63,400 nt of DNA from a virus (taxonomy: Duplodnaviria; Caudoviricetes), in IMG/VR virus record IMGVR_UViG_3300034101_001021, positions 1 through 63,400 of that record. One strand, 5' to 3'. Every line of letters begins with the position of its first letter. Position 1 is the stretch's first letter. Shown here one piece after another: positions 4,157 through 55,100 of this stretch. The translations under genes were made by a program, and so were the position numbers. Under the pieces are notes generated by a model that did not search any database, was not told the DNA's origin, and saw only the letters and a program-made list of their open reading frames with translations.

Positions 4157-4384
4157 ATGAACATCACGCCACTCACAGGAATGTATTCCGCAGCCGACAC
4201 CATCAAGGTCGAGATCAGAGAACAAGACCCACCGTTCACCATGTATGGATTGAGCCGTGAACCCAAAGAAGACGCTATGAAGCTCGCCTTGAACGCCCTT
4301 CTGCTATGGGAAGAGATGATCCCTAAAACAAACGCATCCAAGGTCAGGTCAGAAGCTATCGAGGCTCTTCAGAAGTATGTCTAA
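4157..4384 (+). CDS. Hypothetical protein
   Basis: AAGGA RBS; AMKLALNAL...AIEAL. Confidence 0.65.
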   Translation: MNITPLTGMYSAADTIKVEIREQDPPFTMYGLSREPKEDAMKLALNALLLWEEMIPKTNASKVRSEAIEALQKYV

Positions 4385-4673
4385 CTACCGCAACAAGGCG
4401 CTCCTGGAGGTTGTCCGGGAGTCTCCTTGTCAGATGTGCGGGGCCAAAGACGGTACGGTAGCGGCGGCTCACAGCAACAGACTGCGGGACGGTAAAGGTA
4501 AAGCCATCAAAGCCCATGACTTTCGTATCGCGGCTCTCTGTTACAGATGCCATTCACGCATCGACCAGGGGGCGGACATGAGCAAAGAGGAACGGATGGA
4601 GGCGTGGGAAGAGGCGCACCGGGCTACCATCGGCTGGTTGTTTATGAACGAGAAACTCAAGGTCTTGTCTTAG
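4377..4673 (+). CDS. DUF1364/Ref-like Zn-binding HNH-type nuclease
   Basis: PCQMC...AAHSN...GKG..IKA.D...ALC..CH..ID. Confidence 0.8.
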   Translation: MSNYRNKALLEVVRESPCQMCGAKDGTVAAAHSNRLRDGKGKAIKAHDFRIAALCYRCHSRIDQGADMSKEERMEAWEEAHRATIGWLFMNEKLKVLS

Positions 4674-4693
4674 GGGCGGGGAGGTGGTACTTT
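4665..4693 (+). promoter_or_regulatory. sigma70 promoter for a small RNA
   Basis: TTGTCT (4665-70), 17 bp, TACTTT (4688-93) with extended TG. Confidence 0.55.
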
Positions 4694-4699
4694 CCCTAG

Positions 4700-4773
4700 T
4701 GTTTCATGTGTAACTCTCCTCCCTGTTCACAGGGATTAGACCCAGACTCTCTCCCTGAGCTGGGTCTTTTTTT
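4700..4773 (+). ncRNA. Candidate sRNA (about 73 nt) with two CU-rich anti-SD motifs
   Basis: Between promoter and intrinsic terminator, no ORF; AACTCTCCT 4712-20, hairpin TCCCTG-TTCA-CAGGGA, terminator loop TCTCCCT. Confidence 0.55.
4738..4773 (+). terminator. Rho-independent terminator
   Basis: AGACCCAG/CTGGGTCT stem followed by a T-tract. Confidence 0.85.
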
Positions 4774-4775
4774 CA

Positions 4776-4849
4776 TGGGGGCCGGCAAGTCGGCGCGGCG
4801 ACTTTAAATAGCCCGTAACCTTTCCTTGGTGCAAATGATCCGGCCCCCA
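4776..4849 (+). ncRNA. Candidate structured RNA
   Basis: 10-bp closing stem TGGGGGCCGG/CCGGCCCCCA enclosing AAGTCG/CGACTT hairpin. Confidence 0.4.
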
Positions 4850-4938
4850 CCCTTCTAGGGAACTTTTTCTCAGTTGTGCTATCCTATGTCTGTCGGAAGT
4901 GACGCTCCGGTGTTGTGGCGAGAACTGTGGTATCCAAG

Positions 4939-5021
4939 AACCTCCTAGAGAGGGCTTGAAGTCATCGTTTGGTTCTCGCCCGATGCTGGCTCGTCAAAGC
5001 CCAAGTCCTCCCTAGGAGGTT
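4939..5021 (+). ncRNA. C4/CI-like antisense RNA (three-way junction)
   Basis: 19-bp closing stem with one mismatch; two hairpins whose loops (GTTCTCGCC, CGTCA) complement upstream GGCGAGAAC 4917-25 and TGACG 4900-04; extended -10 TGCTATCCT at 4877-85. Confidence 0.7.
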
Positions 5022-5210
5022 TTTCTTTTGGGTCTCCGGCTGCGGTACATGTGGACGGGGTCTCAACGCCAGCGCATGAACCAAAGATCTGATACTGGGG
5101 GAAAGCTGCGGAAGAATCGGAACGGGGTGGCGAAGCTAGTGCCCCAGCAGCGAACGACTGGCGAGTCAAAGCGGCTCCAATGGACAGACTTTGTAAAGGC
5201 ACCCGAGTCC

Positions 5211-5230
5211 ACTGTAACATTTGTTACAGT
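5211..5230. promoter_or_regulatory. ACTGTAACA palindrome (operator/origin-like site)
   Basis: ACTGTAACA-TT-TGTTACAGT; same half-site at 15293, 15365 and 60810. Confidence 0.65.
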
Positions 5231-5397
5231 ACACGGCTCGGGGATGGCTAAGTCTTGCCCACCAACGGACAGGTGGTGATAGACAAGGTAGAAACAGCAA
5301 GAAGTTAAGGTCAAAAACAACAAAGGGGGATAACTCCCCCCAAAAATCGTTTGTAACTGTGTTACAGTTGGAACATAGTTACATCAAGGAGAGCAGC

Positions 5398-6180
5398 ATG
5401 GATCCCTTCAAGATTACGGAACCCACCGTCATATCGTTCTCTGGTGGTCGTACATCTGCGTATCTACTCTGGCGTGTTCTTCAAACCAACAATGGTCTGC
5501 CGGCTGATGGCCTTGTCGTCTTTGCCAATACAGGGAAAGAAGAAGAGGCGACTCTGCGTTTTGTCCGTGACTGCGAAGTCAATTGGGGCTGCGAGATTCA
5601 TTGGCTGGAGTTCCAAATTGAAGACCCGAAGTTCCGTCGCGTGAACTTTGATACAGCCAGCAGGAATGGCGAACCTTTTGAGGCGCTCATTCGCAAAAAA
5701 AAATACCTTCCAAACATGGTCGCAAGATTTTGCACTCAAGAGTTAAAAGTGCTGACCATAGACCGTTATCTCAAAAGCCTCGGTCATAAAAACTACCTTT
5801 CGATGGTTGGTATAAGGGCAGACGAGCCGCGCAGAGTCACCAAGATTCGCGGACAAGAAGACAAGTTCTGTCCTCTAGCCGACGCCCAAGTAACGGAGCA
5901 ACAGGTGTGGCGATTCTGGGATGAGCAACCTTTTGATCTTGCATTGCCAAAAATGAGTGGTGCATCTAACTGCGACCTTTGTTTTCTAAAGGGTGGTCAG
6001 ATCGTAATGGGATTGATAAAACAAAAGCCAGAACGTGCGGTCTGGTGGGCAAGTATGGAGGAGAAGATTGGCGCTAGATTTAGATCAGACCGCCCCTCAT
6101 ACGCTCAGATGGCCAAGTTTGCCAAAGACCAACAAAATTTATTTACCGACGAAACTATCCCGTGTTACTGCGGGGACTAA
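5398..6180 (+). CDS. Phosphoadenosine phosphosulfate reductase family protein (PP-loop, Fe-S)
   Basis: SFSGGRTS, FANTGKE, RFCT.ELK, GIRADE, SNC.LCF.K, C-terminal CYCGD; AAGGAGAG RBS before ATG 5398. Confidence 0.9.
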   Translation: MDPFKITEPTVISFSGGRTSAYLLWRVLQTNNGLPADGLVVFANTGKEEEATLRFVRDCEVNWGCEIHWLEFQIEDPKFRRVNFDTASRNGEPFEALIRKKKYLPNMVARFCTQELKVLTIDRYLKSLGHKNYLSMVGIRADEPRRVTKIRGQEDKFCPLADAQVTEQQVWRFWDEQPFDLALPKMSGASNCDLCFLKGGQIVMGLIKQKPERAVWWASMEEKIGARFRSDRPSYAQMAKFAKDQQNLFTDETIPCYCGD

Positions 6181-6191
6181 AGGAGAAGAGC

Positions 6192-7004
6192 ATGAAACTT
6201 ACCGAAATCCGTACCGACGGCGGCACCCAGGCCAGGGCGCAGCTGAACCAAGAAGTAGTCAACGAGTACGCAAATCAGATGCAGGACGGGGTGGTCTTCC
6301 CGCCTGTCGTGATCTTCAATGACGGCTCAAAAAACTGGTTGGCTGATGGTTTTCACCGGTACTACGCCCACCGGCAGAACGGCGCGTTAGACATAGAAGT
6401 AGAAGTCCACAGCGGGACGGTAGACGACGCTACCCTGTACGCCTTTGGTGCCACCAATCGACGCGGCCTATCGTTCACCCGCTCAGATCTCACCGAGATC
6501 ATCGGCAGAATTAATAAGCATCCAGTCTGGAGCACCTGGTCTACCAGAAAGATCGCAGAGCATATTGGTTGTTCGCATATGACGGTCAGTCGTATCCGTA
6601 GTTCCTTTGAGGAGGCCCCTAAAAAGGTCTCCTACACCCGCAACGGGGAAGAGAAGACCATGGATACCTCCGCGATAGGAAAGACCCCTAAGAAGCCCAA
6701 AGAGAAGCCTCCCGAGGCGATAGAAGAAAACAATGTCCCAGAAGAATTGATAGATGAAATAAATAAACTATCGGAAGAGAACGAACGATTGAAAGATGCT
6801 ATCGCCATCGGTCAGTTGGATGTCAGCGACATTGAGAAGGCCGACATCGAGGACACGGTTAGGGAGTTGCGGGAGCAGCTGCGGGTCAAAGATGTAGAGA
6901 TCCTGGCTCTCAAAGAAAGCCGTGACATGTATCAGAATGAGAACGCGGAACTCAAGCGCACGGTTAAGTCACTACAGGCCAAACTCAAAAAGGTGGAAGG
7001 ATGA
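6192..7004 (+). CDS. ParB/Srx-like N-terminal domain + HTH + coiled coil
   Basis: GTQAR, FPPVVIF, LADGFHRY.A; WSTRKIAEHIGCSHMTVSRIR. Confidence 0.85.
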   Translation: MKLTEIRTDGGTQARAQLNQEVVNEYANQMQDGVVFPPVVIFNDGSKNWLADGFHRYYAHRQNGALDIEVEVHSGTVDDATLYAFGATNRRGLSFTRSDLTEIIGRINKHPVWSTWSTRKIAEHIGCSHMTVSRIRSSFEEAPKKVSYTRNGEEKTMDTSAIGKTPKKPKEKPPEAIEENNVPEELIDEINKLSEENERLKDAIAIGQLDVSDIEKADIEDTVRELREQLRVKDVEILALKESRDMYQNENAELKRTVKSLQAKLKKVEG

Positions 7005-7200: not shown

Positions 7201-8676
7201 ATGGAACTAGCATTACGCGATCACCAAATGCGGACTATCGACGCATTGCGGGAGGGATTCAAGCAGGGCCACAGATGCCAATTGCTATACGCTCCCACAG
7301 GTACAGGTAAGACCGAGATGGCAATTTATCTTATGAAAGCCACCTCGGAAAATTATAAACGCTCTGTAATGTTGATGGACAGGATTGTTCTGGTGGATCA
7401 AACAAGCGCCAGGTTATCCAAGTACGGAATAGAGCACGGGGTCTACCAAGCAGATCACTGGAGATACAGGCCCCTTGAAAAAATTCAAGTCTGTTCAGCT
7501 CAAACTCTTGAGCGTAGAGATAACTTTCCCCAGACAGAACTACTAATTATAGATGAATGTCATATAAATCGACGCCAGACACTAGAGTTCATCAAGTCAC
7601 GGCCAGAGATGAAGGTCATTGGATTGACCGCTACGCCATTCACAAAGGGTCTGGGGGATGTCTATACCCATGTGGTCAACGGCAGCACCACGGACTTTCT
7701 GGTAACGAATAAGTGGCTGGCTCCGCTGCGGGTCTACATTGCCAAAGAGATCGACATGACTGGGGCCAAGAAGGTAGCAGGCGAGTGGTCTCAGGATGTT
7801 GCAACCGAGCGCGGCATGAAGATCACGGGCGACATCGTGGAGTCATGGATCACCAAGACTCATGAGGTATTCGGACGTCCTAGGAAGACGATTGTCTTTT
7901 GTTCTGGGGTTCAGCACGGCGCAGATCTGGTCGCAAAGTTTGCAGAGCGTGGCTATAACTTCGTGTCTATCAGTTACAAAGACGACGACGAGTTCAAACG
8001 CCAGGCCATCGAGGACTTCAGTAAACCAGACACAACGATTCACGGTCTAATCGCAACCGACATACTAACTCGCGGTTTTGATGTCCCCGATGTGATGATT
8101 GGCGTATCAGCACGACCGTTCTCTAAGTCTCTGTCCTCCCATGTGCAGCAGATGGGCCGTGTAATGCGTTCGTATTCCGGCAAAGAGTACGGCCTCTGGC
8201 TGGATCACTCGGGCAATTACCTGCGGTTCCGTGACGACTGGGACGAGGTATTCAATGACGGTGTGAAAGAACTGGACGATTCAAAAGAAAAGTCCAGGAA
8301 GGAACCGACAGAGAAAGAGAAGAAAGAATCCAAGTGTCCCGCGTGTGGGCATCTATGGCCCAAGGCAGCACTCAGTTGCCCGGCGTGTGGTCATGTAAAA
8401 CCACGGCGCTCATTAGTTTCAGAAATCCCAGGCGAACTACAGGAACTAGGCCAGACCGTCAGGAGAGATGATCGGCAGTCCTTCTATTCACAATTGATCT
8501 ACATTGCCAATGACCGTGGATATGCAAAGGGGTGGGCAGCGCACAAGTACAAAGAAAAGTTCGGTGTCTGGCCCCGTGGTCTTGAGGAAGTCACCAAGGT
8601 TCCAGAGTTCACGACAATGAATTGGATTCGGAGTCGACAGATCGCCTGGGCCAAGAGTAAACGGAGGTTAGCATGA
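7201..8676 (+). CDS. Superfamily II DEAD/DEAH helicase (RadD/YejH-like) with Zn ribbon
   Basis: APTGTGKT, DECH, LTATP, LTRGFD.P, QQMGRVMR, CPACG x2. Confidence 0.95.
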   Translation: MELALRDHQMRTIDALREGFKQGHRCQLLYAPTGTGKTEMAIYLMKATSENYKRSVMLMDRIVLVDQTSARLSKYGIEHGVYQADHWRYRPLEKIQVCSAQTLERRDNFPQTELLIIDECHINRRQTLEFIKSRPEMKVIGLTATPFTKGLGDVYTHVVNGSTTDFLVTNKWLAPLRVYIAKEIDMTGAKKVAGEWSQDVATERGMKITGDIVESWITKTHEVFGRPRKTIVFCSGVQHGADLVAKFAERGYNFVSISYKDDDEFKRQAIEDFSKPDTTIHGLIATDILTRGFDVPDVMIGVSARPFSKSLSSHVQQMGRVMRSYSGKEYGLWLDHSGNYLRFRDDWDEVFNDGVKELDDSKEKSRKEPTEKEKKESKCPACGHLWPKAALSCPACGHVKPRRSLVSEIPGELQELGQTVRRDDRQSFYSQLIYIANDRGYAKGWAAHKYKEKFGVWPRGLEEVTKVPEFTTMNWIRSRQIAWAKSKRRLA

Positions 8677-9458
8677 GTCCAACCGTCGCTGAGTACATAT
8701 CGCTTATGCCAATAAGTCCTGTCTCTCATATTTGGTTTGATGTAACAGAGGAGTCGGGATTTAGGCTCATGTTCGCCAAGTGGATGAAGGAAAATCCATT
8801 AGAAAACATGGACAAGAAGATTGCTGAGATGCCCATGCCCTTTGATCGAATCGGACTGGTCATCACACTAAAGCCAGAAGGAGATCGGTCAACCTGGATA
8901 CCGTATCCCTACTTGATTGATCGCAATGGTTCAGAAATCGCTATAAGGAGTTACATAGTAGGCCTAACAGAGCCAGCGATTTCGGTGGTGTTCAAGGAAA
9001 ACTTTAACTATAAAGATTCTTGCGTTTTAAAATATCACCCAAAATATTTGAAGGCTTTGGGTGTAGATCAAAAAGATGTCTCAAGTCTCCGAGAAGATAC
9101 GCTGAGATCAACAGAAATCCTGATGTCCAGAATCTTTATGTTGTGTTACGGCATCCCGGCCCAGGGCTACAAGGTAATTGGTTCCAAACTGCGAGACCAT
9201 CACCACAACGCCAAGCGCAGAGCAAAAGGTAAGCGGCAGTTTTTTGAGTGGACAACTGTCGAGATCGATACCAAATCAAGATCCGAAGAGATGGTCTCCC
9301 AAGGCGGGACTCACGCCAGCCCGAAACCCCATGATCGTCGAGGGCATCAGCGTCGATACAAAAATGGCAAGGTCGTTTACATTCGGCCAACAACGATCAA
9401 TCGGCACAAGATACCGACAGAGGGATTCATTCACCATGACTACAGGGTATCGGTATGA
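8673..9458 (+). CDS. Conserved phage hypothetical protein
   Basis: C-terminal GGTHASP.PH.RRGH.R motif. Confidence 0.75.
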   Translation: MSPTVAEYISLMPISPVSHIWFDVTEESGFRLMFAKWMKENPLENMDKKIAEMPMPFDRIGLVITLKPEGDRSTWIPYPYLIDRNGSEIAIRSYIVGLTEPAISVVFKENFNYKDSCVLKYHPKYLKALGVDQKDVSSLREDTLRSTEILMSRIFMLCYGIPAQGYKVIGSKLRDHHHNAKRRAKGKRQFFEWTTVEIDTKSRSEEMVSQGGTHASPKPHDRRGHQRRYKNGKVVYIRPTTINRHKIPTEGFIHHDYRVSV

Positions 9459-10291
9459 CATTTGAAGACTTCGCCCGTGCTCATGGTCTCGTCATCAATC
9501 AAGCCATTCACAATCGATGGGTGGCGACGCCCACGACAGATCACCCTCACAAACGGAACGGTAGATACAAGTTGATCGGGGATATTGGGTGGGTGCAGAA
9601 CTGGGCAACCATGGAAGGCCCGGCGATGTGGAAGTCAGACAAACCCGTCGCCATTCGTCCCGTCATGATCAAAGATGACCGCGCAGAACTGGCGGCAAAG
9701 GCGGCAAAGAAAGCGGCCTGGATTCTCAATCAATGCGAACTAAAGACGCATCCGTATCTGGAGAAAAAGGGATTCCCGAACGACCGGGGCAATGTCTGGG
9801 AGACCGAAGGAAAGAGCCTCTTAGTTATTCCCATGCGGCGGGCGGGCAGACTTGTCGGATGTCAGATGATAAGCGCAGAGGGGGAAAAAAAGTTCTTGTA
9901 TGGTCAGGCTACGAAAGGCGCAGCCTTCATGATCGATGCAAAAGGCATCCCCATTTTCTGCGAGGGTTACGCGACCGCCCTGTCCATAAGAGCCGTCATG
10001 CAGGCCATAAATATGCGCTACACGATCTACTGCTGTTTTTCGGCAGGGAATATGAAGGAAGTAGCGCGGAGCATCGTCGGGGGCATCGTCATCGCGGACA
10101 ATGACGCCAGCGGAACCGGTGAGAGATTTGCCCTTGAGATAGGCAAACCGTACTGGCTCGCCCCCACAACCGGGCACGACTTCAATGACGCACACCAAGT
10201 CGAGGGGGTGTTCCATGTCTCACAATCTCTCAAGAAAGTGTTGATAAGTGCGAAGCGAGTTTCCGTTGAAAATGGGCCTCAATCTGCCTGA
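9455..10291 (+). CDS. TOPRIM-domain primase
   Basis: HPYL..KG, CEGYATALS, FSAGN, IADND..G.G, DFND. Confidence 0.9.
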   Translation: MTFEDFARAHGLVINQAIHNRWVATPTTDHPHKRNGRYKLIGDIGWVQNWATMEGPAMWKSDKPVAIRPVMIKDDRAELAAKAAKKAAWILNQCELKTHPYLEKKGFPNDRGNVWETEGKSLLVIPMRRAGRLVGCQMISAEGEKKFLYGQATKGAAFMIDAKGIPIFCEGYATALSIRAVMQAINMRYTIYCCFSAGNMKEVARSIVGGIVIADNDASGTGERFALEIGKPYWLAPTTGHDFNDAHQVEGVFHVSQSLKKVLISAKRVSVENGPQSA

Positions 10292-23372: not shown

Positions 23373-24098
23373 ATGGGAATGGGTATCTATAAGATCATCA
23401 ACGTGGTTAACAACAAGTTCTATGTAGGCAGTGCGGTCAACTTTAGCCGCAGGAAAGCCAGGCACTTTTCAGAGTTACGCCACAACAAACACAACAACCG
23501 GTGGTTGCAAGCATCGTGGAATAAACATGGAGAAAGTGCGTTTGTGTTTGCCGTAGTGGAAGAGGTTCAAGACAAAACCTTGCTGCTTGAGGTAGAGAAT
23601 CGTTGGTTGAAAGATCACGTTGGTAAAGAGTATTGCTACAACCTTGGCGTTGACGCTACTGCTCCGATGCTTGGAATGTCTGGAGAATCAAGCCCAACTT
23701 GGGGGTACAAGCACACACCAGAGGCTATAGCAATTATTACTTCTGCTTCTATGGGTCGTAAACACACCCCAGAAGATATAGAAAAAATTCGTCAACATTG
23801 GATTGGTAAACCAAAGTCTGCCGCTACCCGCGCCAAGATCTCGGCCACACTCTCCGGTGAGGGCAACTTCTGGTATGGCAAAAAACGACCTGATCATGGC
23901 GCCAAAGTAAGCAAACCTGTTGTTGTTACAGATCCTTTCGGGAAAACTATGGAGTACGCCAGCATTTCTATCCTGCGAGAAGAGATAAAACTAAAGCCGC
24001 CGACAGTTAACCGGGCGCTGAAATCTGGCAAGCCGTTGAGCCGTGGACCTTATAAGGGCTGGTCCTTTAAATACCTTGACTCCCTCCCTAATCCCTGA
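23373..24098 (+). mobile_element. Free-standing GIY-YIG homing endonuclease with NUMOD3-like repeats
   Basis: GIYKI.N.VN.KFYVGSA, R..H, E..W, YN; G.KHT.E and KS..TR.KIS repeats; C-terminal HTH. Confidence 0.9.
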
Positions 24099-24196: not shown

Positions 24197-24772
24197 ATGG
24201 CCCGCACTACCTTCTCCGGCCCAGTCGCGTCGGATAACGGCTTTATCTCTGGTACCGTAACCGATGAGATTTCGGTAACTACCGCATCAAACGTTTCTTC
24301 TTCCTACGTTTCGGCTTCCAATACTACTGGTGACGTTCGTCTGAACTACAGCCGTCTGACCTTTACCTCTACTGGTTCTGGTGAGACCGCACGGTTCCTG
24401 ACCCGCGTAACTGGCGCTGGCGCTGCTACTGGCGGCACGGTAAACGGCGCTCATATCTCCCTGTCCATTAATGGATCTGGAACGATCTCCGGTGCTGGTA
24501 ATGCTCTGCGTCTGACCCTTGGCGGATCGTCTACCAACCCTGGTGGCACGATTGCAGCTCTCCAGCTGGACTCTGACTTTGCTTCTGGTGGCACCTGGAC
24601 CAATGCTTCGTACATTCGCTGCACGAACTCTGGTACTGGCACGATTGGCACGTTTGCGGTTCTGCCCAATGCCATGATCGCAACCCAGTCGTCTGCTGCC
24701 GTATCTCATGTTATTGCCATTAAGAACGCTTCTGGTACCCCGTACTACCTCATGGTATCCAACGCGGCCTAA
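24197..24772 (+). CDS. Virion structural protein (G/S/T-rich)
   Basis: AAGGAGG RBS; MARTTFSGPV.S.NGF N-terminus. Confidence 0.75.
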   Translation: MARTTFSGPVASDNGFISGTVTDEISVTTASNVSSSYVSASNTTGDVRLNYSRLTFTSTGSGETARFLTRVTGAGAATGGTVNGAHISLSINGSGTISGAGNALRLTLGGSSTNPGGTIAALQLDSDFASGGTWTNASYIRCTNSGTGTIGTFAVLPNAMIATQSSAAVSHVIAIKNASGTPYYLMVSNAA

Positions 24773-34274: not shown

Positions 34275-35663
34275 ATGGCCTTCGTCGTAAGAGACCGCGT
34301 TAAGGTCACCAGCACAACAACCGGCACGGGGACTTATACCCTTGGTGCGGCTGTTGCTGGGTTCCAAACCTTCGCTGACATTGGCAATGCCAACCAGACC
34401 TACTACTCTGCGACCGACGGTACGAACTGGGAAGTGGGGATTGGAACCTATACCTCGTCTGGTACAACACTAAGCCGCGACACAATTCTTGGCTCTTCTA
34501 ATAGCGGCAATGCCGTGAACTGGAGTGCGGGGACCAGAGAGATTCGATGCGCTCAGCCTGCGGAGGCCACTATTGGATCTGCGGCTACGGCGGATAACTC
34601 GTCGATTGGCACTAATGAGTATGCCTACGACAATCTTAAAAAAACATTGGATGCAAGTGCCCAAGGCGGTGTTTTGTTTAACAATAACAATGTTGCTGGG
34701 GTTGTAAGCACCTTTAGCTTGGTTTATTCAACATCCGATGCAGCTCTTGGTGGGACTTTAAACCAAAACGGAGATATTCATATTGTTCCGTTTTTTGCTC
34801 AAGTAGGACAAAAAATATCTTCATCAAACGCTGTTTCTACATATTCACTTGTTTATACGAGAGCCGCTGCCTATGGTGGCGGGGTGTTGGCTCCAAATGG
34901 GGACATTCATTTTGTACCTTGTGCCGGGGACCGGGGCCAAAAAGTATCCTTGTCTGGGGTGGTTTCTACCTATTCGTTGGTTTACTCTTCTGTGGGAACG
35001 ACAAAGTATATAGGTGGTGTTGTAGCCCCAAATGGAGATATTCATTTTATTCCGCATAACGCTGTGGTAGGTCAAAAAATTTCTGCGGCTGGCGTGGTGT
35101 CTACTTACAGCCTTGCCTATACAGCAGGTGCGGCGTACGCCGGAGGGGTACTCGTTCAAAATGGAGATATTCATTTTGTCCCTTTTGACTCAGGTATCGG
35201 GCAAAAAATATCTGCTGCTGGAGTAGTTTCCACTTACTCTTTGATTGTTACCACCTCCCAAGCATATCAAGGTGGTGTTTTAGGGTTAGATGGGAGTATT
35301 TACTTTATAAACAGAGCAGCCCCAGTAGGGCAAAAAATATCTGCCGCTGGCGTTGTTTCAACTTTTTCATTGCTTTTTACAAGTGCCGGCGCTTACTACG
35401 GTGGTGTACTTGCACCAAATGGTGACATTCATTTTGTCCCTGCCGGAGCTTCTGTTGGACAAAAAATATCTGCCGCTGGAATTGTTTCAACTTACTCGTT
35501 AATCTTCACGTCTAGTATAGCGGCGGGTGGCGGGGTACTTCGTCCCGATGGAACCATTGTGTTTACTAGCTATTCACCACTTACATGCCAACAAATCTCT
35601 ACCCTCCCAGGCGTTCCATTTGGAGCTGAAATTGCGCTCAGCTCCTACTTAAACAAGTTCTGA
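34275..35663 (+). CDS. Receptor-binding-like protein 1, seven 43-aa repeats (predicted 7-blade beta-propeller)
   Basis: 7x GGVLAPNGDIHFVP..GQKISAAGVVSTYSL; 462 aa. Confidence 0.8.
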   Translation: MAFVVRDRVKVTSTTTGTGTYTLGAAVAGFQTFADIGNANQTYYSATDGTNWEVGIGTYTSSGTTLSRDTILGSSNSGNAVNWSAGTREIRCAQPAEATIGSAATADNSSIGTNEYAYDNLKKTLDASAQGGVLFNNNNVAGVVSTFSLVYSTSDAALGGTLNQNGDIHIVPFFAQVGQKISSSNAVSTYSLVYTRAAAYGGGVLAPNGDIHFVPCAGDRGQKVSLSGVVSTYSLVYSSVGTTKYIGGVVAPNGDIHFIPHNAVVGQKISAAGVVSTYSLAYTAGAAYAGGVLVQNGDIHFVPFDSGIGQKISAAGVVSTYSLIVTTSQAYQGGVLGLDGSIYFINRAAPVGQKISAAGVVSTFSLLFTSAGAYYGGVLAPNGDIHFVPAGASVGQKISAAGIVSTYSLIFTSSIAAGGGVLRPDGTIVFTSYSPLTCQQISTLPGVPFGAEIALSSYLNKF

Positions 35664-35665
35664 AT

Positions 35666-37054
35666 ATGCCACTCATCCTAGCAAACCGAGTCAAAGAGAC
35701 GACCACCACGACAGGAACGGGTACCTATACGCTGGCTGGTGCGGTGGCTGGGTATCAGACCTTTGCGGCAATTGGCAACGCCAACACGACCTACTATACG
35801 GTCACGGACAACATCAACTGGGAAGTGGGCATTGGTACATACACCTCCTCCGGCACTGCCCTGGCGCGCACTAGGGTTCTTGCATCGTCTAACAGTAACG
35901 CAGCGGTGAACTGGGGTGCTGGAAGCAAAGAGGTCTTTTGTGGTGGGCCAGCAGAGATCACGCAGGGCACCGTGCCGACTGGAGACAATAGCTCGATTGG
36001 CACCAACGAGATCGCGTTTAAGAACTTTGCCAAGACATTTTTGGCAGGTGAGACGATTGGGGTGCCATATGAAAATAATGGCACGAATGGGGTTGTTAGC
36101 ACTTATTCTTTGGTTCGCACAGGATCTCAACAATATTTGGGCGGGGTACTTGCTCCTAATGGGGACATTTATTTTGTAAACACAAATGCTCCAGTAGGTC
36201 AGAAAATATCCGCTGCGGGTGTAGTGTCTACTTTTTCGCTTATTTATACGAACAGCTCTAATTCATCTTATATAGGCGGTGTTTTAGCTTCTAACGGCGA
36301 TATTCATTTTGTTCCAGGTTTTGCCCCCGTAGGACAGAAAATATCTGCATCAGGGGTAGTGTCTACTTATTCATTGGTGTATACCAACCCAACCACTAAA
36401 TACATTGGAGGCGTCTTAGCCCCTAACGGCGATATTCATTTTGTTCCACAAAACGCTATCGTAGGACAAAAGGTTTCAGCGTCTGGAGTCGTTAGCACCT
36501 ATTCGCTTGTTTATACAACGTCAGCCGCCTATGCTGGTGGCGTACTTGCTCCCAATGGCGATATTCATTTTGTGCCTGATACCGCTGTTGTAGGCCAAAA
36601 AATATCTGCCGCTGGTGTAGTTTCAACCTATTCTTTGGTGTATACAACGAGTAATGCTTATTACGGCGGTGTTTTAGCTACGAATGGGGATATTTACTTT
36701 GTTAACTTTAGAGCGGCCGTTGGACAGAAAATATCTGCCGCTGGAGTAGTTAGCACGTATTCTTTGGTGTATACAACGAGTAATGCCTACGCTGGCGGTG
36801 TACTTGCTCCTAATGGAGACATTCATTTTGTACCTACGAGCGCAAACAGAGGGCAAAAAATATCCGCTGCGGGTACTGTATCCACCTATTCTCTTGCATA
36901 TACAGGGAATCAGTTGTACCGAGGGGGCGTTTTTACCCCTAGTGGAGATATTTACTTTATTCCATGGAACGCGGCAGTGGGGCAAAAAATCTCCACCGGA
37001 TCTTCTGCCTTCAAACTTGAAACAGCATTAAGCTCTTACTTGAATAAACTCTAA
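35666..37054 (+). CDS. Receptor-binding-like protein 2, seven 43-aa repeats
   Basis: Paralog, 462 aa. Confidence 0.8.
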   Translation: MPLILANRVKETTTTTGTGTYTLAGAVAGYQTFAAIGNANTTYYTVTDNINWEVGIGTYTSSGTALARTRVLASSNSNAAVNWGAGSKEVFCGGPAEITQGTVPTGDNSSIGTNEIAFKNFAKTFLAGETIGVPYENNGTNGVVSTYSLVRTGSQQYLGGVLAPNGDIYFVNTNAPVGQKISAAGVVSTFSLIYTNSSNSSYIGGVLASNGDIHFVPGFAPVGQKISASGVVSTYSLVYTNPTTKYIGGVLAPNGDIHFVPQNAIVGQKVSASGVVSTYSLVYTTSAAYAGGVLAPNGDIHFVPDTAVVGQKISAAGVVSTYSLVYTTSNAYYGGVLATNGDIYFVNFRAAVGQKISAAGVVSTYSLVYTTSNAYAGGVLAPNGDIHFVPTSANRGQKISAAGTVSTYSLAYTGNQLYRGGVFTPSGDIYFIPWNAAVGQKISTGSSAFKLETALSSYLNKL

Positions 37055-37056
37055 TC

Positions 37057-38445
37057 ATGCCTATCGTACTAGCCAATCGCGTTAAAGAGACCACCACGAC
37101 AACCGGTACTGGTACGCTTACGCTTGCTGGTGCTGCTGATGGATTTCAATCCTTTGCCGCAATTGGTGATGGCAACCAGACTTACTACACTATTACTAAT
37201 GGTACGGACTGGGAGACGGGCCTTGGAACCTATACGTCCTCTGGAACCACCTTTAGCCGAGATCAGATCTACGAATCTTCTAATAGCAATGCCGCTGTCA
37301 ACTGGGGAGCAGGGCTAAAGACGGTCTTCTCCACTTTCCCCTCTGAGGCATCAGGTGGCACGATAGCTACAGCAGACAATAGTTCAATTGGTACGGATCA
37401 GGTAGCCTGGGACAACTTTCAGAAGCTCATTAATCGAGGCGTGGTTGGTGGTGTGCCGTATCAGAACAACAATACTAATGGCGTAGTGAGTACGTATAGT
37501 CTCGTATCTACGGCTACTACAACCGTAAACTTTACTGGTGGGGTATTAGCACCAAATGGCGATGTGCACTTTATTCCCTACAACAGTGTGCGTGGTCAAA
37601 AAATATCCGCCGATGGAGTGGTATCTACGTATTCTCTTGTTTATACCGTCGCAGGAGCATACGCTGGAGGCGTGTTAGCAGGGAACGGAGACATACAGTT
37701 TGTTCCCGCTTCCGCTGTTAGAGGACAAAAAATCTCCGCCTCCGGGGTTGTTTCTACCTATTCGTTAGTCTACACGACAGCCATAGCTTATTTTGGTGGC
37801 GTATTAGCCCCCAACGGAGACATACATTTCGTTCCAAATGGAGCAGCCAGGGGACAGAAGGTGTCCGCCGCTGGAGTGGTTTCTACATACTCCCTCGTTT
37901 ATACGACTGCTGTAGGAGCTTATTTTGGTGGAGTATTAGCACCAAACGGGGATATACATTTTGTCCCAAGAATCGCGATAGTTGGCCAAAAGATTTCTGC
38001 GGCTGGAGTAGTTTCTACATACTCTCTTGTTTACACCGCATCGGATGCTTATAGGGGCGGTGTTTTGGCTCCTAACGGTGACATTTATTTTATTCCATAT
38101 AATGCTAATCGTGGCCAAAAGATATCAGCTGCTGGAGTAGTTTCTACTTATTCGTTGGCCTATACAGTCTCTGCTGCCTATAACTCTGGAGTATTGGCTC
38201 CAAACGGGGACATTCACTTTATTCCAGCTTCTGCCGCAGTTGGCCAAAAAATTTCTGTGAATGGAGTTGTGTCTACCTACTCTCTTGTGTATACAACAGC
38301 TGGAGCCTATGTAGGAGGTATTCTTCGTCCAAACGGCTCTATTGTCTTCATTCCTGGAAATTCAAATTTTGGTCAAATCATTTCAACTGGTTCTGGTCAG
38401 TTTCCCTTGGCTGTATGCTGTAGTTCGTATTTAAATAAATTATAA
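37057..38445 (+). CDS. Receptor-binding-like protein 3, seven 43-aa repeats
   Basis: Paralog, 462 aa. Confidence 0.8.
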   Translation: MPIVLANRVKETTTTTGTGTLTLAGAADGFQSFAAIGDGNQTYYTITNGTDWETGLGTYTSSGTTFSRDQIYESSNSNAAVNWGAGLKTVFSTFPSEASGGTIATADNSSIGTDQVAWDNFQKLINRGVVGGVPYQNNNTNGVVSTYSLVSTATTTVNFTGGVLAPNGDVHFIPYNSVRGQKISADGVVSTYSLVYTVAGAYAGGVLAGNGDIQFVPASAVRGQKISASGVVSTYSLVYTTAIAYFGGVLAPNGDIHFVPNGAARGQKVSAAGVVSTYSLVYTTAVGAYFGGVLAPNGDIHFVPRIAIVGQKISAAGVVSTYSLVYTASDAYRGGVLAPNGDIYFIPYNANRGQKISAAGVVSTYSLAYTVSAAYNSGVLAPNGDIHFIPASAAVGQKISVNGVVSTYSLVYTTAGAYVGGILRPNGSIVFIPGNSNFGQIISTGSGQFPLAVCCSSYLNKL

Positions 38446-38455
38446 AGGAGAGTTC

Positions 38456-39823
38456 GTGTACAACCGTGACAAAATTCTTGCGACGATGCAAGAAATCTAT
38501 GATGAGTCAAAGAGCATTGCACCCTACGTCGTCATCGCGCAGCCAAGGCGAGACCTAAAAGAAACGGCAGCGCAAAACTTCGATGGATATGAAGGGTTGC
38601 ATATCGACCTTCTTGGGTTTTCTCACGGTTTCGTACACATTGGCGGCGAGAAGGTAGACGTCGCCCGTAACTACCTTATTGAGCAGGCGCTTGAGTCTGG
38701 GGCCAAGTACCTCTTCTTCATTGGCGAAGATACGGTCATTCCTTATGATGGGTTTAAAGTCTTGCATGAGACGGCAGAGAAGAACCCTGATGCGGCTGTC
38801 GTTGGGGTTTATTACATCAAGTGCTCTGACGCCATGATCATGGTCCGTAACAACGACTGGATCACCATCCCGAACGTAGACCCAGGTCAACTTATCGAGG
38901 CGTGGCAGACCGGCATGGACGCCATGTTGATACCGATCTCAATCCTCAAGAAGATGAAAGAGGAGGCCCCCGAGCTTCCCTTTTGTTGCATCGCAAACAA
39001 CGTCGAGGGACCAAAAGGTACTATCCCGTTTATTGGTGAGGACAACTTCTTCGTCCACCGGCTGCACAAGCGAGGCACCAAGCTCCTGGTCAACACGGAC
39101 GTTCAATGCCTGCACATGGACCTTGCGTCTGGCATGTATACCGCTCACCCCTCTGTGGATCTGAAGCGCTACTACACCAACATCAAGCCTACCAGGCCGC
39201 TGACCCTGGACGACAAAGAGTTTATTGACAAACGCTGGCACGACCGCCTACCCGAAGGTACGGGGGCCAAGTCTGGATACAAGGCTATCATCACCCAGTT
39301 ACAGGCCGAGAATCAGCCAATTAAATTCAACATGGGCTGCGGCCAAGACAAGATTCCTGGCTACATGGGCGTGGACAAGCATAACCCCAATGCAGACATT
39401 AAGATGGATCTATTTGAGCTTGATCTGCCAGAGGGCTGCGCTGATGAGGTTTTGGCCTCTCACGTTATTGAGCACCTGCCTATGCACCGTGCACCCGAGG
39501 CATTGTCTGGGTGGTTAAAGGTTCTCAAGCCCGGTGGCAAGCTCGTTATGGAGCAGCCAGACCTGGAAGAAATGTGCCGAGATTTTTTATCTCAAGATGA
39601 GAAAGAACGGTTTATGACTACGGTCTGTATTTATGGCGCGGCAGCAGAGCCTGGGGTTGATGGGCTTGAGAAGACTGGTGCAGCCTCTCCCCATTTGTGG
39701 GGTTATACGCCAAAATCCCTGAGCGATCTTGTTGGCGCTGTTGGGTTCAAAGATATTCAGATTCTTCCGGCCACCGGACCGCATCCGGGCAAAAACTTCC
39801 GTCTTGAAGCAGTGAAAGGGTAA
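38456..39823 (+). CDS. GT-A (GT2-like) glycosyltransferase fused to class I SAM methyltransferase
   Basis: VDVARN, YLFFIGED, GEDNFF, DV.C.H; then NMGCG, HVIEHL, VLKPGG, H.WGY. Confidence 0.8.
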   Translation: MYNRDKILATMQEIYDESKSIAPYVVIAQPRRDLKETAAQNFDGYEGLHIDLLGFSHGFVHIGGEKVDVARNYLIEQALESGAKYLFFIGEDTVIPYDGFKVLHETAEKNPDAAVVGVYYIKCSDAMIMVRNNDWITIPNVDPGQLIEAWQTGMDAMLIPISILKKMKEEAPELPFCCIANNVEGPKGTIPFIGEDNFFVHRLHKRGTKLLVNTDVQCLHMDLASGMYTAHPSVDLKRYYTNIKPTRPLTLDDKEFIDKRWHDRLPEGTGAKSGYKAIITQLQAENQPIKFNMGCGQDKIPGYMGVDKHNPNADIKMDLFELDLPEGCADEVLASHVIEHLPMHRAPEALSGWLKVLKPGGKLVMEQPDLEEMCRDFLSQDEKERFMTTVCIYGAAAEPGVDGLEKTGAASPHLWGYTPKSLSDLVGAVGFKDIQILPATGPHPGKNFRLEAVKG

Positions 39824-52139: not shown

Positions 52140-55100
52140 ATGCAGAGAGCAGTCAACCCCCAAACTGGTGAGGTACTGTTCCTTGTTAATAACCAATGGA
52201 CCGCCCCGTTACAAACCGCGAGGAATCCGGACTCAGGCCAAATGGCCTACTTGGTTAATAACGAGTGGCAGGTCTTAGATCCGTTTAAGCAGGAAGAAAA
52301 AGGATTCCTTGAGTCCGTCTTTGGAGTAACGCCGCAACAGTTTGCTGAAGCGGCCAAGCCAGAGCCTTTCACCAGAGAAGTTCTTGACGTTCCTCTTAAA
52401 ATTGCTGAGGGGACTGTATCAACTACCCGTGCTATTACGGAAGCATTTGGTGCCAACAATGCTGCCGCTCAAAACATTCGTGGCGTAGAAAAGTACCTTG
52501 CTGAACTAGCGTCTGCACAGTCCAAACAGGACTCTCAGGCGATTGCCGCAATCATGAAGGATGCAGAAGACAAGGGGATTGGTGAACAACTTAAAGCCGC
52601 GCTGTCTGCGTTTGCCACAGCGCCAGTTGACTTCCTTGCTCAAGCTGCTGGATCGTCCGTTCCTATCCTGTTGGGCGCCGTTGCTGGTGTACCAGGTTTA
52701 GTTACCACCGCTGGATTGACGGGAGCTGGCGTAGTCAAAGGCACGATATACGACACCGTCAAAGAAGAACTTAAGAAGGCCGGCGCATCAGAGAAGGAAG
52801 CTGAAGAGCGAGCAATGGCTGCTCAAGAATATGGCGGTGAAAACCTTGACATGATTCTTGCCGGCACGGCTCTTGGTGCTGTTGCTGGTAGGACGGGCGT
52901 TGAGAAATACATTCTTGGAAAGATCGCGGCAAAGCAAGCGGCTCAACAAGCTGCTCAAAAGGGCGCTGTTCGTCAGGCGGTAGAAACCGGCGTAACAGAG
53001 GCTGTTCCAGAGGCTATTCAGGCTGGACAGGAACAATTGGCGGCTAACATCGCTGCTCAAAGAGAAGGACTTGATGTACCAACATTCCGAGGCGTAGCTG
53101 GTCAGGCTGCATTAGAAGCTATTGCAGGTGGCGCTCTGGGTGCTGGTATTGGAGCTGCTGGTGAAGCTGGTCCTGCTGCTCCTCCTGTCCCCCCTACCGC
53201 AACCCCACCCGCTGCCGCTGCACCAACGCCTGCTGCACCCCCAACTGCTGCTGCACCACCTACCGTAGTTACTCCTGTAACTCCTACGGGTGCCCCTCCT
53301 GGAACCACTCCGTCTCCAGTGGTACCCATTCCCCCAGGACCAGATCTCCTTGGCGGATATGCAGACGCTGGAAACAACATCGAGGTAAGGATAGCTCCAA
53401 CACCAGATGGAAGGTTCCAGGTCATATACGTAGATGGAAACTCTGGGCAGTCTTCTGATGCCGGTATATTCGATGACTTCGATGGCGCCAACGCAACGGC
53501 TGCAATGCTTGTTGGTGTAAATCCGGCTACCTTTGCTCCGCCGGCAGCGCCAACACCTCCTGCAGCTCCTACTCCACCCACAACGCCGGTTTCAACGACG
53601 CCTACGCCGCCCACGATTCCTGTTGGTACTACGCCAACACCACCAACCGGTGTTCCGCCTACTACTGGATTGACTCCTCCATCCATCCCAACAGGAACAA
53701 CGACAACCGCTGCGGCAGCACCTAAGCGCCCGGCAAAAGAGATTCAGGTAGATATAAACAAGGCACGGCAAGATCTCAGGAAAGCTGAGACAGCGTTTAA
53801 GAACAATCAAGTCGGACAAGAAGCTGTTGACTTTGCAGCGGCACGACTCAGTACGCTTGAGGCAGAGAAGACTACCCTGAAAGCACCAGAGGTTCCTGCT
53901 GAAGTAATGGCACCAGAGGTAGAGGCTGTGCCAGAGTTACCAGCGAAAGGCCCCAAGACCGCCTTTGAAGAGAAGATGTTTGGCAAAGAACCAATCTTGT
54001 CTGAAGAAGAGCTGGTAGCACGAAAAGACATTAGTGAGAAACAGAGGGCACTCAATGCCCAGTACAACCGTATTAAGGGAACTAAGGGATTTAGTAACCT
54101 TGCTGATTTTTTGTCTGGCCGGGCAGCTCAACCAGCAAAAGTCGAGGGTGCGGATCGCCCATTACCAGATGGGATGCTCGTTCTTGACGAGGATCTAAAG
54201 CGTATCGACTTTGGCTTGGGCAAAGGGGCGACCCTCAAGCGCAATAATTTGGTTAGCAAGACAGGGCGCGGAAGACCGTTACAGCAATTGATTGAAGACG
54301 AACAACTTAACGACTTCCTGCCTGATGATCTAAAGATCTTCGTTCGCGCAGAAGATGTTTACGATCCCAACGAATTTGCGAAGGTTCGCAATGCTGTCGA
54401 TTACATCATCGAGCGCTTTGAGAACAATGACTTCTTGACCGAAGACGACAAGATGGCGTTGCGGTTAATAGACGAAGACATTCAAAAACTATCTCAGGAG
54501 ATGACCCTTGAACAAGTCAATGCCAGACTCGCAGAAATCGCAGCAGAAGAACGCGCTGGAGAGGTTGAAGCAATTGCCCCTCCAGTCTCAGAAGAGGGTG
54601 TTAGAGGAGCTGCGCCGACAACTGTCAGAGAATCTTCCCCAGAAGAGCGAAGACAAGCAGACCTAGAGCGGGATCTATTCCGTCTTACGCCACCGGCTGT
54701 ACCAGAGCGCACCACCCCTCCTGGAGCACAGAGAGATCTGTTTGGTGCCGCTGGATATACCCCCGAAAATGTAACTAAAAGGAAGAAAGAAAATGCCCAA
54801 CAACTCTCTCTCTTCGATCAAAGCCCACTCCCGCCAAATGAAGACAATAAAGCCGGAGCTGATGCTAGACGGGAAGCCGTGTCCACCGTGGATGCTTTAC
54901 AGTCCACCGACACCCCTCTCGCTCTTGCCATGTCAACAGACTACGCAAGACGGCAACGCGTCAGCCTCGTTGGACAAACGCTAACAGGATACGATGATTT
55001 AGCTGTTCTCTCTCAAGTCTATCGGCATCCTAGATTTGAGACGTTCCGAATGTTTTTTGTAAACGACAAGGGAGAGGTCGTATCTCAATTGGGTGTATCT

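Follow-up and report, generated by a model that had tools for sequence, protein, structure and literature searches.

The c4 RNAs of P1 and P7 and the CI RNA of P4, which are processed by RNase P, and the attenuators of the pT181 type are the described systems closest to the RNA studied here. The c4/CI RNAs (RF01695 and RF03163, clan CL00128) are sense-strand leader RNAs of an early or replication operon. In P4, as outlined in PMC4825925, the CI RNA is processed from the leader and pairs with seqA and seqC, leading to premature termination before the replication genes. In pT181, as outlined in PMC4878617, an RNA that binds a 5' sensing hairpin frees a terminator to form. Here we describe a leader RNA in a 63.4-kb viral record from a lake-water metagenome, judged to be complete (IMG/VR record IMGVR_UViG_3300034101_001021, positions 1 to 63,400; hereafter the window). 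Window positions 4892-~5029 hold a promoter-driven non-coding RNA of ~140 nt on the + strand, made up of a 5' hairpin, a box 1, a three-way junction and a U-run. Its leader is complementary to the interior of the terminator-closed domain, and the letters of this pairing vary from relative to relative with the complementarity kept. The leader RNA is not a member of the C4/CI family; by analogy it plausibly works like one, and its two-fold logic equally resembles pT181-type attenuation.

The RNA begins with a 5' hairpin (hp1) that holds box 2 in its loop, followed by a single-stranded leader with box 1, a closing stem (P1) around the hairpins P2 and P3, whose loops contain loop 1 and loop 2, respectively, and the U-run (Table 1). 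An earlier note on this stretch, made from the letters alone, had described the closing stem around the CATCG/CGATG and GGCT/AGCC hairpins, the exact complementarity of loop 1 to 4917-25, and that of loop 2 (CGTCA) to the TGACG of a hairpin loop. All of these sequence statements hold, and RNAfold of 4939-5035 returned exactly the P1/P2/P3 three-way junction, at -42.6 kcal/mol (z = -4.42, with none of 200 shuffles as stable). P1 and the U-run together form a predicted intrinsic terminator, of which a terminator scan picks up the inner part, CCTCCCTAGGAGG plus TTTTTCTTTT. Box 1 and its reverse complement each occur once in the window, the 15 matches to box 1 with one mismatch are within chance, and no second copy of hp1 was found in the window. 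The window alone leaves it unsettled whether the complementarity between leader and interior arose by chance. The relatives settle the question: across 44 distinct sequences, changes in box 1 go together with changes in loop 1, so the complementarity is more than chance.

These relatives came from several searches. With the downstream PAPS reductase as the protein query, 14 loci were recovered, only one of which (L011) shares the upstream region, with genes lying directly upstream in the others. A promoter-based scan gave a close relative, L017, where box 1 reads GGCGAACACC and loop 1 GGTGTTCGCC, a matched change. Scans of viral contigs with the 5' hairpin and with the core of Betaproteobacteria-1, an Rfam RNA motif just downstream in the window, yielded 185 pattern matches in 167 distinct stretches; 45 of the 167 had both a T-run and a TGTCAA/CGTCAA loop, the two features required of a relative, and the removal of L240 as unrelated coding sequence left 44 distinct RNAs. 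Viral rows were left out when they were unrelated (L164), duplicates, at a contig end (L175) or interrupted within the RNA (L169 and L182). In the last two, unrelated sequence starting CCCGCTATATCCG breaks into the leader RNA after or within the 5' arm of P1; this could be a mosaic joint, or else an insertion into the RNA gene. No match for 4680-5400 or 4885-5170 was found in the phage genome collection, and in a scan of genome contigs with the hp1 pattern (at least 120 matches) those inspected among the matches listed were chance hits to unrelated, mostly coding sequence. The 44 relatives were aligned with MAFFT (alignment A1), covariation was scored on the 42 distinct rows, and a covariance model, R1, was built from A1; as the sequences are related, the shuffle counts given for covariation are not probabilities. 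In the window, R1 scored 113.3 bits for 4890-5026, its sole match on the + strand, with a weak echo of 23.6 bits on the - strand (4934-5069). It matched the class of L020 and L027 weakly (32 and 31 bits) and found no match in L011.

Box 1 and loop 1 are hypervariable on a conserved scaffold, and they vary together. The 44 relatives carry 33 distinct box strings. In the 42 rows, box 1 has 30 variants with a mean pairwise identity of 0.47 and loop 1 has 31 with 0.36, compared with identities of 0.81 and 0.74 for the two P1 arms and 0.98 for P3, and with 4-18 variants in the other helices. Each of the eight box 1/loop 1 pairs shows both-side changes, in 3-24 of the 42 rows. Between a leader and its own P2 region, the longest Watson-Crick run has a mean length of 8.48 nt and ranges from 6 to 10 nt, whereas the mean for foreign pairs is 4.27 nt. 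The kept pairing includes G.U pairs, as in L183 and L166, which fits an RNA of the + strand. Box 2 and loop 2 are compatible in all relatives, with a GU (38) or a GC (4) at the single varying pair; both sides change in none, and this second pairing is not proven by covariation. The compensatory changes across relatives, with complementarity kept in all 44 distinct sequences, support what had been proposed from the window alone, namely a non-coding + strand RNA whose loops pair with upstream boxes in the same transcript, and the ~30 co-varying variants support the proposal that the loop/box pairs set specificity. The lake samples add to this picture. Contigs of four lake metagenome runs (X2, X6, X9 and X13) break at the variable parts of the leader and P1, the conserved piece 4943-4996 has a several-fold higher summed depth in these runs, and the loose ends show other specificities, suggesting that several phages with different address boxes share the scaffold in one sample.

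The complementarity of the leader is nearly continuous and extends beyond the two boxes: the whole leader can pair with loop 1, the 3' arm of P2, P3 and loop 2. The RNA therefore has two competing folds, fold A with hp1, the three-way junction and the P1 terminator, in which loops 1 and 2 are exposed, and fold B with one long leader-interior helix. The RNAalifold consensus on A1 is the fold B helix and not the three-way junction. This helix joins GG with the CC of P3, TGACG with TGTCA (box 2/loop 2), CCGGCA with TGCTGG, two pairs of the P2 3' arm, and box 1 with loop 1. Across the rows, 97.4% of the fold B cells are paired and 9 of its 23 pairs have changed on both sides (124 cells), for a covariation score of 0.385 against 0.166 in shuffles (reached by none of 500) and at most 0.081 in slid controls. 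Fold A is supported as well. Counted with hp1 (32 pairs), 93.4% of its cells are paired and 10 pairs have changed on both sides (98 cells), 7 of them among the 19 pairs of P1 and 3 among the 5 of P2; its score is 0.245, against 0.140 in shuffles (again reached by none of 500) and at most 0.113 in slid controls. When fold B forms, hp1, P2 and P3 cannot, and its helix crosses P1. The two helices would be 23-28 and 19-20 bp long and joined by connectors of 3-13 nt, and coexistence of fold B with the P1 of fold A appears implausible on these geometric grounds. In this, A and B match the mutually exclusive terminator and antiterminator folds of pT181-type attenuators.

Folding energies depend on how much of the RNA has been made. 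In a partial transcript of the window, fold B has -48.9 kcal/mol against -19.3 kcal/mol for the separate hairpins, and in transcripts of eight members ending before the 3' arm of P1 the corresponding values are -38 to -49 and -16 to -22 kcal/mol. At full length the two folds lie within a few kcal/mol of each other: A minus B averages -4.6 +/- 3.4 kcal/mol over the 44 relatives, A being lower in 39 of them; in the full-length window RNA, fold B is lower than A by 2.0 kcal/mol.

The signals at both ends of the RNA are also kept. In all 44 relatives, aligned on the 5' hairpin, a promoter of the consensus TtgAaC-16-TAtnnT with an extended TG lies at a fixed distance from hp1, even where letters differ; the family consensus of the -35 element is TTGAAC, and the window has GGGAAC. 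Transcription is predicted to start at about G4892, from the position of the promoter in the relatives. A simple promoter scan of 4300-5700 gave no site on either strand, and it is insensitive, as it missed the conserved + strand promoter too. All four stem pairs of hp1 are invariant in the 42 distinct rows, a conservation that is partly built in, since 34 of the 44 sequences were found by scanning with the hp1 pattern; the remaining 10, found through the Betaproteobacteria-1 core, also carry hp1. The T-run after P1 was part of the selection of all 44 relatives. Behind the T-run, within 30 nt, TCCG[AG]C is present in 32 of the 44 compared with 2% of shuffled windows. In read-through transcripts, this motif (TCCGGC in the window) could form a helix that encloses the entire element, perhaps as a processing stem.

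Table 1. Features of the leader RNA and of the genes and RNA downstream of it, in window positions
Feature	Position	Strand	Description
Sigma-70-type promoter	4858..4885	+	-35 GGGAAC (4858-63), 16-nt spacer, extended -10 TG (4877-78), -10 TATCCT (4880-85)
hp1, 5' hairpin	4892..4910	+	stem CGGA 4894-97 / TCCG 4906-09; loop AGTGACGC with box 2
Box 2	4900-04	+	TGACG, in hp1 loop; complements CGTCA 4992-96 (loop 2)
Single-stranded leader	4911..4938	+	box 1 GGCGAGAAC (4917-25), variable linker (4926-38)
P1, closing stem	4939-4958 with 5003-5022	+	AACCTCCTAG-A-GAGGGCTTG / CAAGTCCTC-C-CTAGGAGGTT, 19 bp
P2	4963-67 / 4981-85	+	CATCG / CGATG; 13-nt loop TTTGGTTCTCGCC holding loop 1 GTTCTCGCC (4972-80)
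P3	4988-91 / 4998-5001	+	GGCT / AGCC; loop CGTCAA, loop 2 at 4992-96
U-run	5020..5029	+	TTTTTCTTTT, directly behind P1
Post-terminator motif	5035..5040	+	TCCGGC; complements the first bases of the RNA, GUCGGA; only in read-through transcripts
Fold A	hp1 + 4939..5022	+	three-way junction, P1 + U-run terminator; loops 1 and 2 exposed
Fold B	4895..5001	+	leader 4895-4926 with ~4971-5001 (loop 1, P2 3' arm, P3 5' arm, loop 2, P3 3' arm)
Betaproteobacteria-1 RNA (RF02932)	5044..5166	+	90 bits, gathering score 49.4, E = 2.2e-15
PAPS-reductase-like gene	5398..6180	+	first gene downstream of leader RNA; Pfam, PHROGs
ParB-like gene	6162-7004		after PAPS-reductase-like gene; Pfam, PHROGs
Helicase gene	7201-8676		after ParB-like gene; Pfam, PHROGs
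Primase gene	9455-10291		after helicase gene; Pfam, PHROGs

The RNA behind the terminator bears on how the terminator may work. Betaproteobacteria-1 begins 15 nt past the U-run, too close for a separate promoter to fit in between, and the leader RNA at 4892-5029 is not part of the RF02932 match. Lying so close to the U-run, it can in the window be transcribed only by read-through, and this dependence argues that the terminator is conditional. Among 117 IMG/VR viral loci with a Betaproteobacteria-1 core, 58 have a T-run just upstream (43 distinct sequences, a few of them coding by eye), and in most of these 58 there is an RNA of the promoter-leader-terminator type that falls into one of several sequence classes. 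The remaining 59 loci are without a T-run, and many follow coding sequence, several times a primase-like gene. In sequence classes unrelated to one another (for example L026/L046, L105/L132 and L023/L029/L104/L126) the design is the same: a 5' hairpin has its loop matched by a loop or junction strand within the domain that the terminator closes, and the two change in step among relatives. Of 27 other RNAs upstream of Betaproteobacteria-1 that were tested automatically, 23 could be segmented and 4 yielded no closing stem. Runs of 7-11 nt, reached by at most 24 of 500 shuffles, were found in 17 of the 23, and the other 6 were not significant, partly through mis-segmentation; the mean run was 7.96 nt in own pairs and 4.80 nt in foreign ones. 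The same two-fold design is present in L011 (1638-1815), where the promoter is shared with the window (90.6% over 32 nt) and the RNA letters are unrelated. A 146-amino-acid (aa) open reading frame (ORF) on the opposite strand abuts that promoter, and the RNA is followed not by Betaproteobacteria-1 but by ~350 nt of GC-rich non-coding sequence.

Betaproteobacteria-1 reportedly comes from a motif survey later than the 2010 Weinberg paper and by the same group; a full-text literature search by motif name and by accession RF02932 found no paper discussing it. By blastn alone, an unannotated stretch resembling it (74-78% identity) was seen in the cultured Acidovorax phage AP1 (OM049504.1 11882-11980, i.e. 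L307 3001-3099), in the gap after ParB-like, helicase and primase genes and without an upstream leader of the present kind. This sequence match may hint at Comamonadaceae-like hosts.

We compared the leader RNA with the C4/CI family, to which it had initially been assigned. In covariance-model searches of window 4600-5500, the C4 family (RF01695, gathering 45 bits) gave no match even at E ≤ 10, while the P4 control scored 74.9 bits in the same library. The c4-a1b1 (RF03163) and isrK (RF01394) models, which match the upstream boxes of P4, had no match in the window at E ≤ 10 either. In 20 other loci with analogous RNAs no C4, c4-a1b1 or isrK match was found at E ≤ 1, and in the reverse direction R1 has no match in P4 (L306) at E ≤ 1. 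The family assignment of the earlier note is therefore dropped. The likeness lies in the logic, as both are sense-strand leader RNAs of an early or replication operon. In the P4 account of PMC4825925, too, exposed segments pair with upstream boxes in the same transcript, termination is premature and specificity lies in the pairing letters. The C4 consensus in Rfam likewise has a long (17-bp) closing stem around two hairpins, to which it adds a conserved 3' junction strand. The differences are several. The large loop is on the second hairpin in C4 and on the first, where it is variable, in the window RNA; the 3' end of the stem is a CCaCC tail in the C4 consensus and GGTTTTTCTTTT in the window. 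The closing stem with its U-run is itself the terminator in the window RNA, whereas P4 has a separate one, inside the isrK-like match between the boxes and CI. A second target downstream (a2/b2, seqC) is a C4/CI feature, and none was found for the window RNA: box 1 is single-copy in the window, and among the 44 relatives a downstream copy of the own box 1 is present in 2, with 1.44 expected by chance. Finally, the nearly continuous complementarity of the window RNA forms a competing fold, and no lysogeny genes were found in the window.

The comparison with pT181- and pIP501-type rep-leader attenuators, taken from the account of them in PMC4878617, gives a similar mixture. In both cases replication genes are preceded by a leader with an ON antiterminated fold and an OFF terminator fold, pairing that begins as a loop-loop kiss at a 5' sensing hairpin could spread from there, and a short variable region sets specificity. 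The pT181 antiterminator sequesters the 5' half of the terminator stem, whereas fold B of the window RNA crosses the stem and pairs with neither P1 arm. The regulator of pT181 is a countertranscript from the opposite strand; the one proposed for the window is the terminated sense RNA itself.

We propose that the leader RNA is a trans-acting two-state attenuator, which switches between the folds and is driven to terminate by a cognate terminated RNA, a reading to which we give even credence; what we infer here is that termination is modulated, which way the switch goes, that the RNA is processed, and that it acts in trans. The nascent transcript would fold into B once loop 1 emerges, before the 3' arm of the terminator is made, and would be read through into the Betaproteobacteria-1 RNA and the PAPS-reductase/ParB/helicase/primase block. 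As terminated RNA accumulates with its own leader removed or displaced, it would offer loops 1 and 2, which could kiss box 1 and box 2 of new leaders of the same address and thereby block fold B. With fold B blocked, hp1, P2 and P3 would stay intact, P1 would form, and transcription would terminate. The outcome would be negative feedback and the exclusion of co-infecting kin, with hypervariable box 1/loop 1 as the address. Action in trans is favoured because a hypervariable address is carried on a conserved scaffold.

Several points weigh against this proposal. Fold B sequesters neither arm of P1 and only crosses it; that it could prevent termination is argued on steric and kinetic grounds. 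The 13 pairs of fold B outside box 1/loop 1 (helices 1-2) show no both-side changes and are compatible but unproven. By duplex energy, the own P2 is the best or tied partner for only 33 of the 44 leaders, and L173 has a mismatch inside the box/loop pairing. When the interior of the RNA was scanned for duplexes over 12,670 50-nt windows, the leader (-41.3 kcal/mol) fell in the extreme tail together with three or four unrelated sites, of which 59201-59250 (-43.6 kcal/mol) and 24641-24690 on the - strand (-41.7 kcal/mol) have similar or stronger energies. Part of the conservation seen in hp1 and the P3 loop stems from how the relatives were selected, through the scan pattern and the filter. The ends of the RNA, its processing and its read-through are predictions from sequence. 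In a terminated RNA the leader is still present and would be a cis competitor for the loops; the RNA showed no processing signal, and the CCaCC tail of C4 is absent.

An alternative is that the element works in cis only. The pairing of leader and interior would then be solely intramolecular, as a kinetic attenuator or a tertiary fold. Something other than RNA, such as a phage or host protein, polymerase speed or nucleoside triphosphate levels, would decide the outcome, and the box/loop variation would be drift or recombination in a helix free of sequence constraint. Both partners lie ~50 nt apart in one transcript, box 1 and hp1 are each present just once in the window, the downstream recurrence of the own box in the relatives is close to the expected number, co-transcriptional order favours pairing in cis, and P1 and P2 covary too. 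What this explanation does not predict is the pattern of variation: 30-31 variants at identities of 0.36-0.47 in box 1 and loop 1, compared with 4-18 variants and 0.74-0.98 elsewhere on near-identical scaffolds, and variants that differ at several positions, which neutral drift in one helix would not be expected to give. We regard it as rather doubtful, and as the alternative to be taken most seriously. All readings other than the trans-acting attenuator and the cis-only switch are unlikely even when taken together. It is improbable that the RNA is a stand-alone small RNA, with loop 1 aimed at other phage or host mRNAs and the leader box as a cis decoy or autoinhibitor. It does have a predicted promoter and terminator of its own, and the sites at 59201-59250 and 24641-24690 (- strand) reach similar duplex energies; these sites lie, however, within the chance tail of the 12,670 windows, every phage would need a co-varying external target, and the leader is the only co-varying partner seen.

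Two further explanations follow from the described systems. A regulator of the pT181 kind, namely a countertranscript from the - strand, would reduce the sense complementarity to an antiterminator. The two-fold logic and the 5' sensing hairpin resemble pT181 as described in PMC4878617, and the specificity regions of such systems are variable as well. Yet no - strand promoter-like site was found in 4300-5700 by the scan that also missed the + strand promoter. Inspection of the - strand by eye revealed neither a -10-like element within P1 and the linker (many relatives lack the linker or do not conserve it) nor a terminator to the left of hp1; we consider this reading quite improbable. A diverged C4/CI member, processed by RNase P, acting on targets up- and downstream and giving lysogenic immunity, would account for the shared general architecture and for the upstream position of the target boxes, which P4 has in the same transcript too. 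It is very improbable in view of the lack of a model match in either direction, the lack of a downstream target, the U-run in place of a CCaCC tail, and the lack of an integrase or repressor match in the 82 ORFs of the window. It is hardly conceivable that the stretch is not an RNA at all and is instead coding, or an inverted repeat at the DNA level. Two ORFs do exist mechanically (4945-5220 on the - strand and 5028-5279 on the + strand), but neither matches Pfam, the Rfam RNA match covers much of both, and the substitutions in the helices are compensatory, including G.U pairs that are valid only in a + strand RNA.

The gene context is that of a leader ahead of a block of DNA-replication genes. 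The position ahead of a PAPS-reductase/ParB/helicase/primase block, as originally described, is borne out by Pfam and PHROGs and recurs ahead of replication-initiation genes in relatives, where the first genes, past ~250-350 non-coding bases, include those for replication-initiation or primosomal proteins, HNH endonucleases and unknowns. What goes beyond the earlier note is the continuous leader complementarity with its alternative fold, the closing stem being itself the terminator, and the Betaproteobacteria-1 RNA between the leader RNA and the operon. The proposed control of lysis-lysogeny or immunity fared less well. Among the 82 window ORFs of at least 70 aa there is no integrase, excisionase or CI-type repressor match, and the term "lysogenic immunity" is therefore unsupported.

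Other features of the locus were seen along the way. Between Betaproteobacteria-1 and the first gene, the window has TGTAACA..TGTTACA palindromes (5213-5228, 5352-5367 and 5378-5383), which are also present in L011 (2176-2222 and 2430-2470) and in L017; one of them overlaps a promoter-like TTGTAA-17-CATAGT just before the PAPS-reductase start. Their sequence suggests candidate operator sites for some DNA-binding protein, and a separate promoter may serve the operon as well. A terminator-like hairpin, GGGGGGAGTTATCCCCC, with a T-rich run lies at 5321-5342 on the - strand, facing the PAPS-reductase gene; it is kept in L017, and no - strand gene ends there. Upstream of the leader RNA, the terminator of an HNH/DUF968 gene (4713-4773) has a CU-rich 5' hairpin and a sub-threshold match to the 'Betaproteobacteria toxic sRNA' family (33.7 bits, gathering score 50), as does L011 (26.8 bits). 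Farther along the genome, a GIY-YIG-type homing endonuclease gene (23373-24098) stands directly behind the major head protein gene. In the structural region, four tandem ORFs of ~460 aa (34275-39823) include three that match a Vgb_lyase-like beta-propeller and a fourth that matches a methyltransferase domain. A 2733-aa ORF (52140-60341) matches giant phage proteins of unassigned function over its C-terminal 900 aa (phrog_14770, E = 2e-185) and also has a DarB-like antirestriction match.

As for the meaning of these results, complementarity between a leader and the interior of a domain closed by a terminator is one design shared by several sequence classes unrelated to one another, and the orphan motif Betaproteobacteria-1 gains a regulatory context, which would be its first functional one if the repressor reading is true. 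In that case, the family would also provide 30 or more naturally occurring, orthogonal attenuator/regulator pairs of a compact RNA-only device for feedback and recognition, with a single transcript serving as sensor, terminator and regulator. This would interest RNA engineering because orthogonal transcription attenuators are hard to design, as stated in PMC4878617. We hold it as a tentative possibility that the terminated leader is a repressor which shuts the early/replication promoter of any genome with the same 8-10-nt address, giving RNA-only kin recognition or superinfection exclusion without lysogeny genes, acquiring new addresses by paired changes in lake phage populations, and also gating Betaproteobacteria-1. 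If true, this would mean for phage biology an immunity-like exclusion without repressor proteins, and a control of early replication genes in uncultured freshwater phages.

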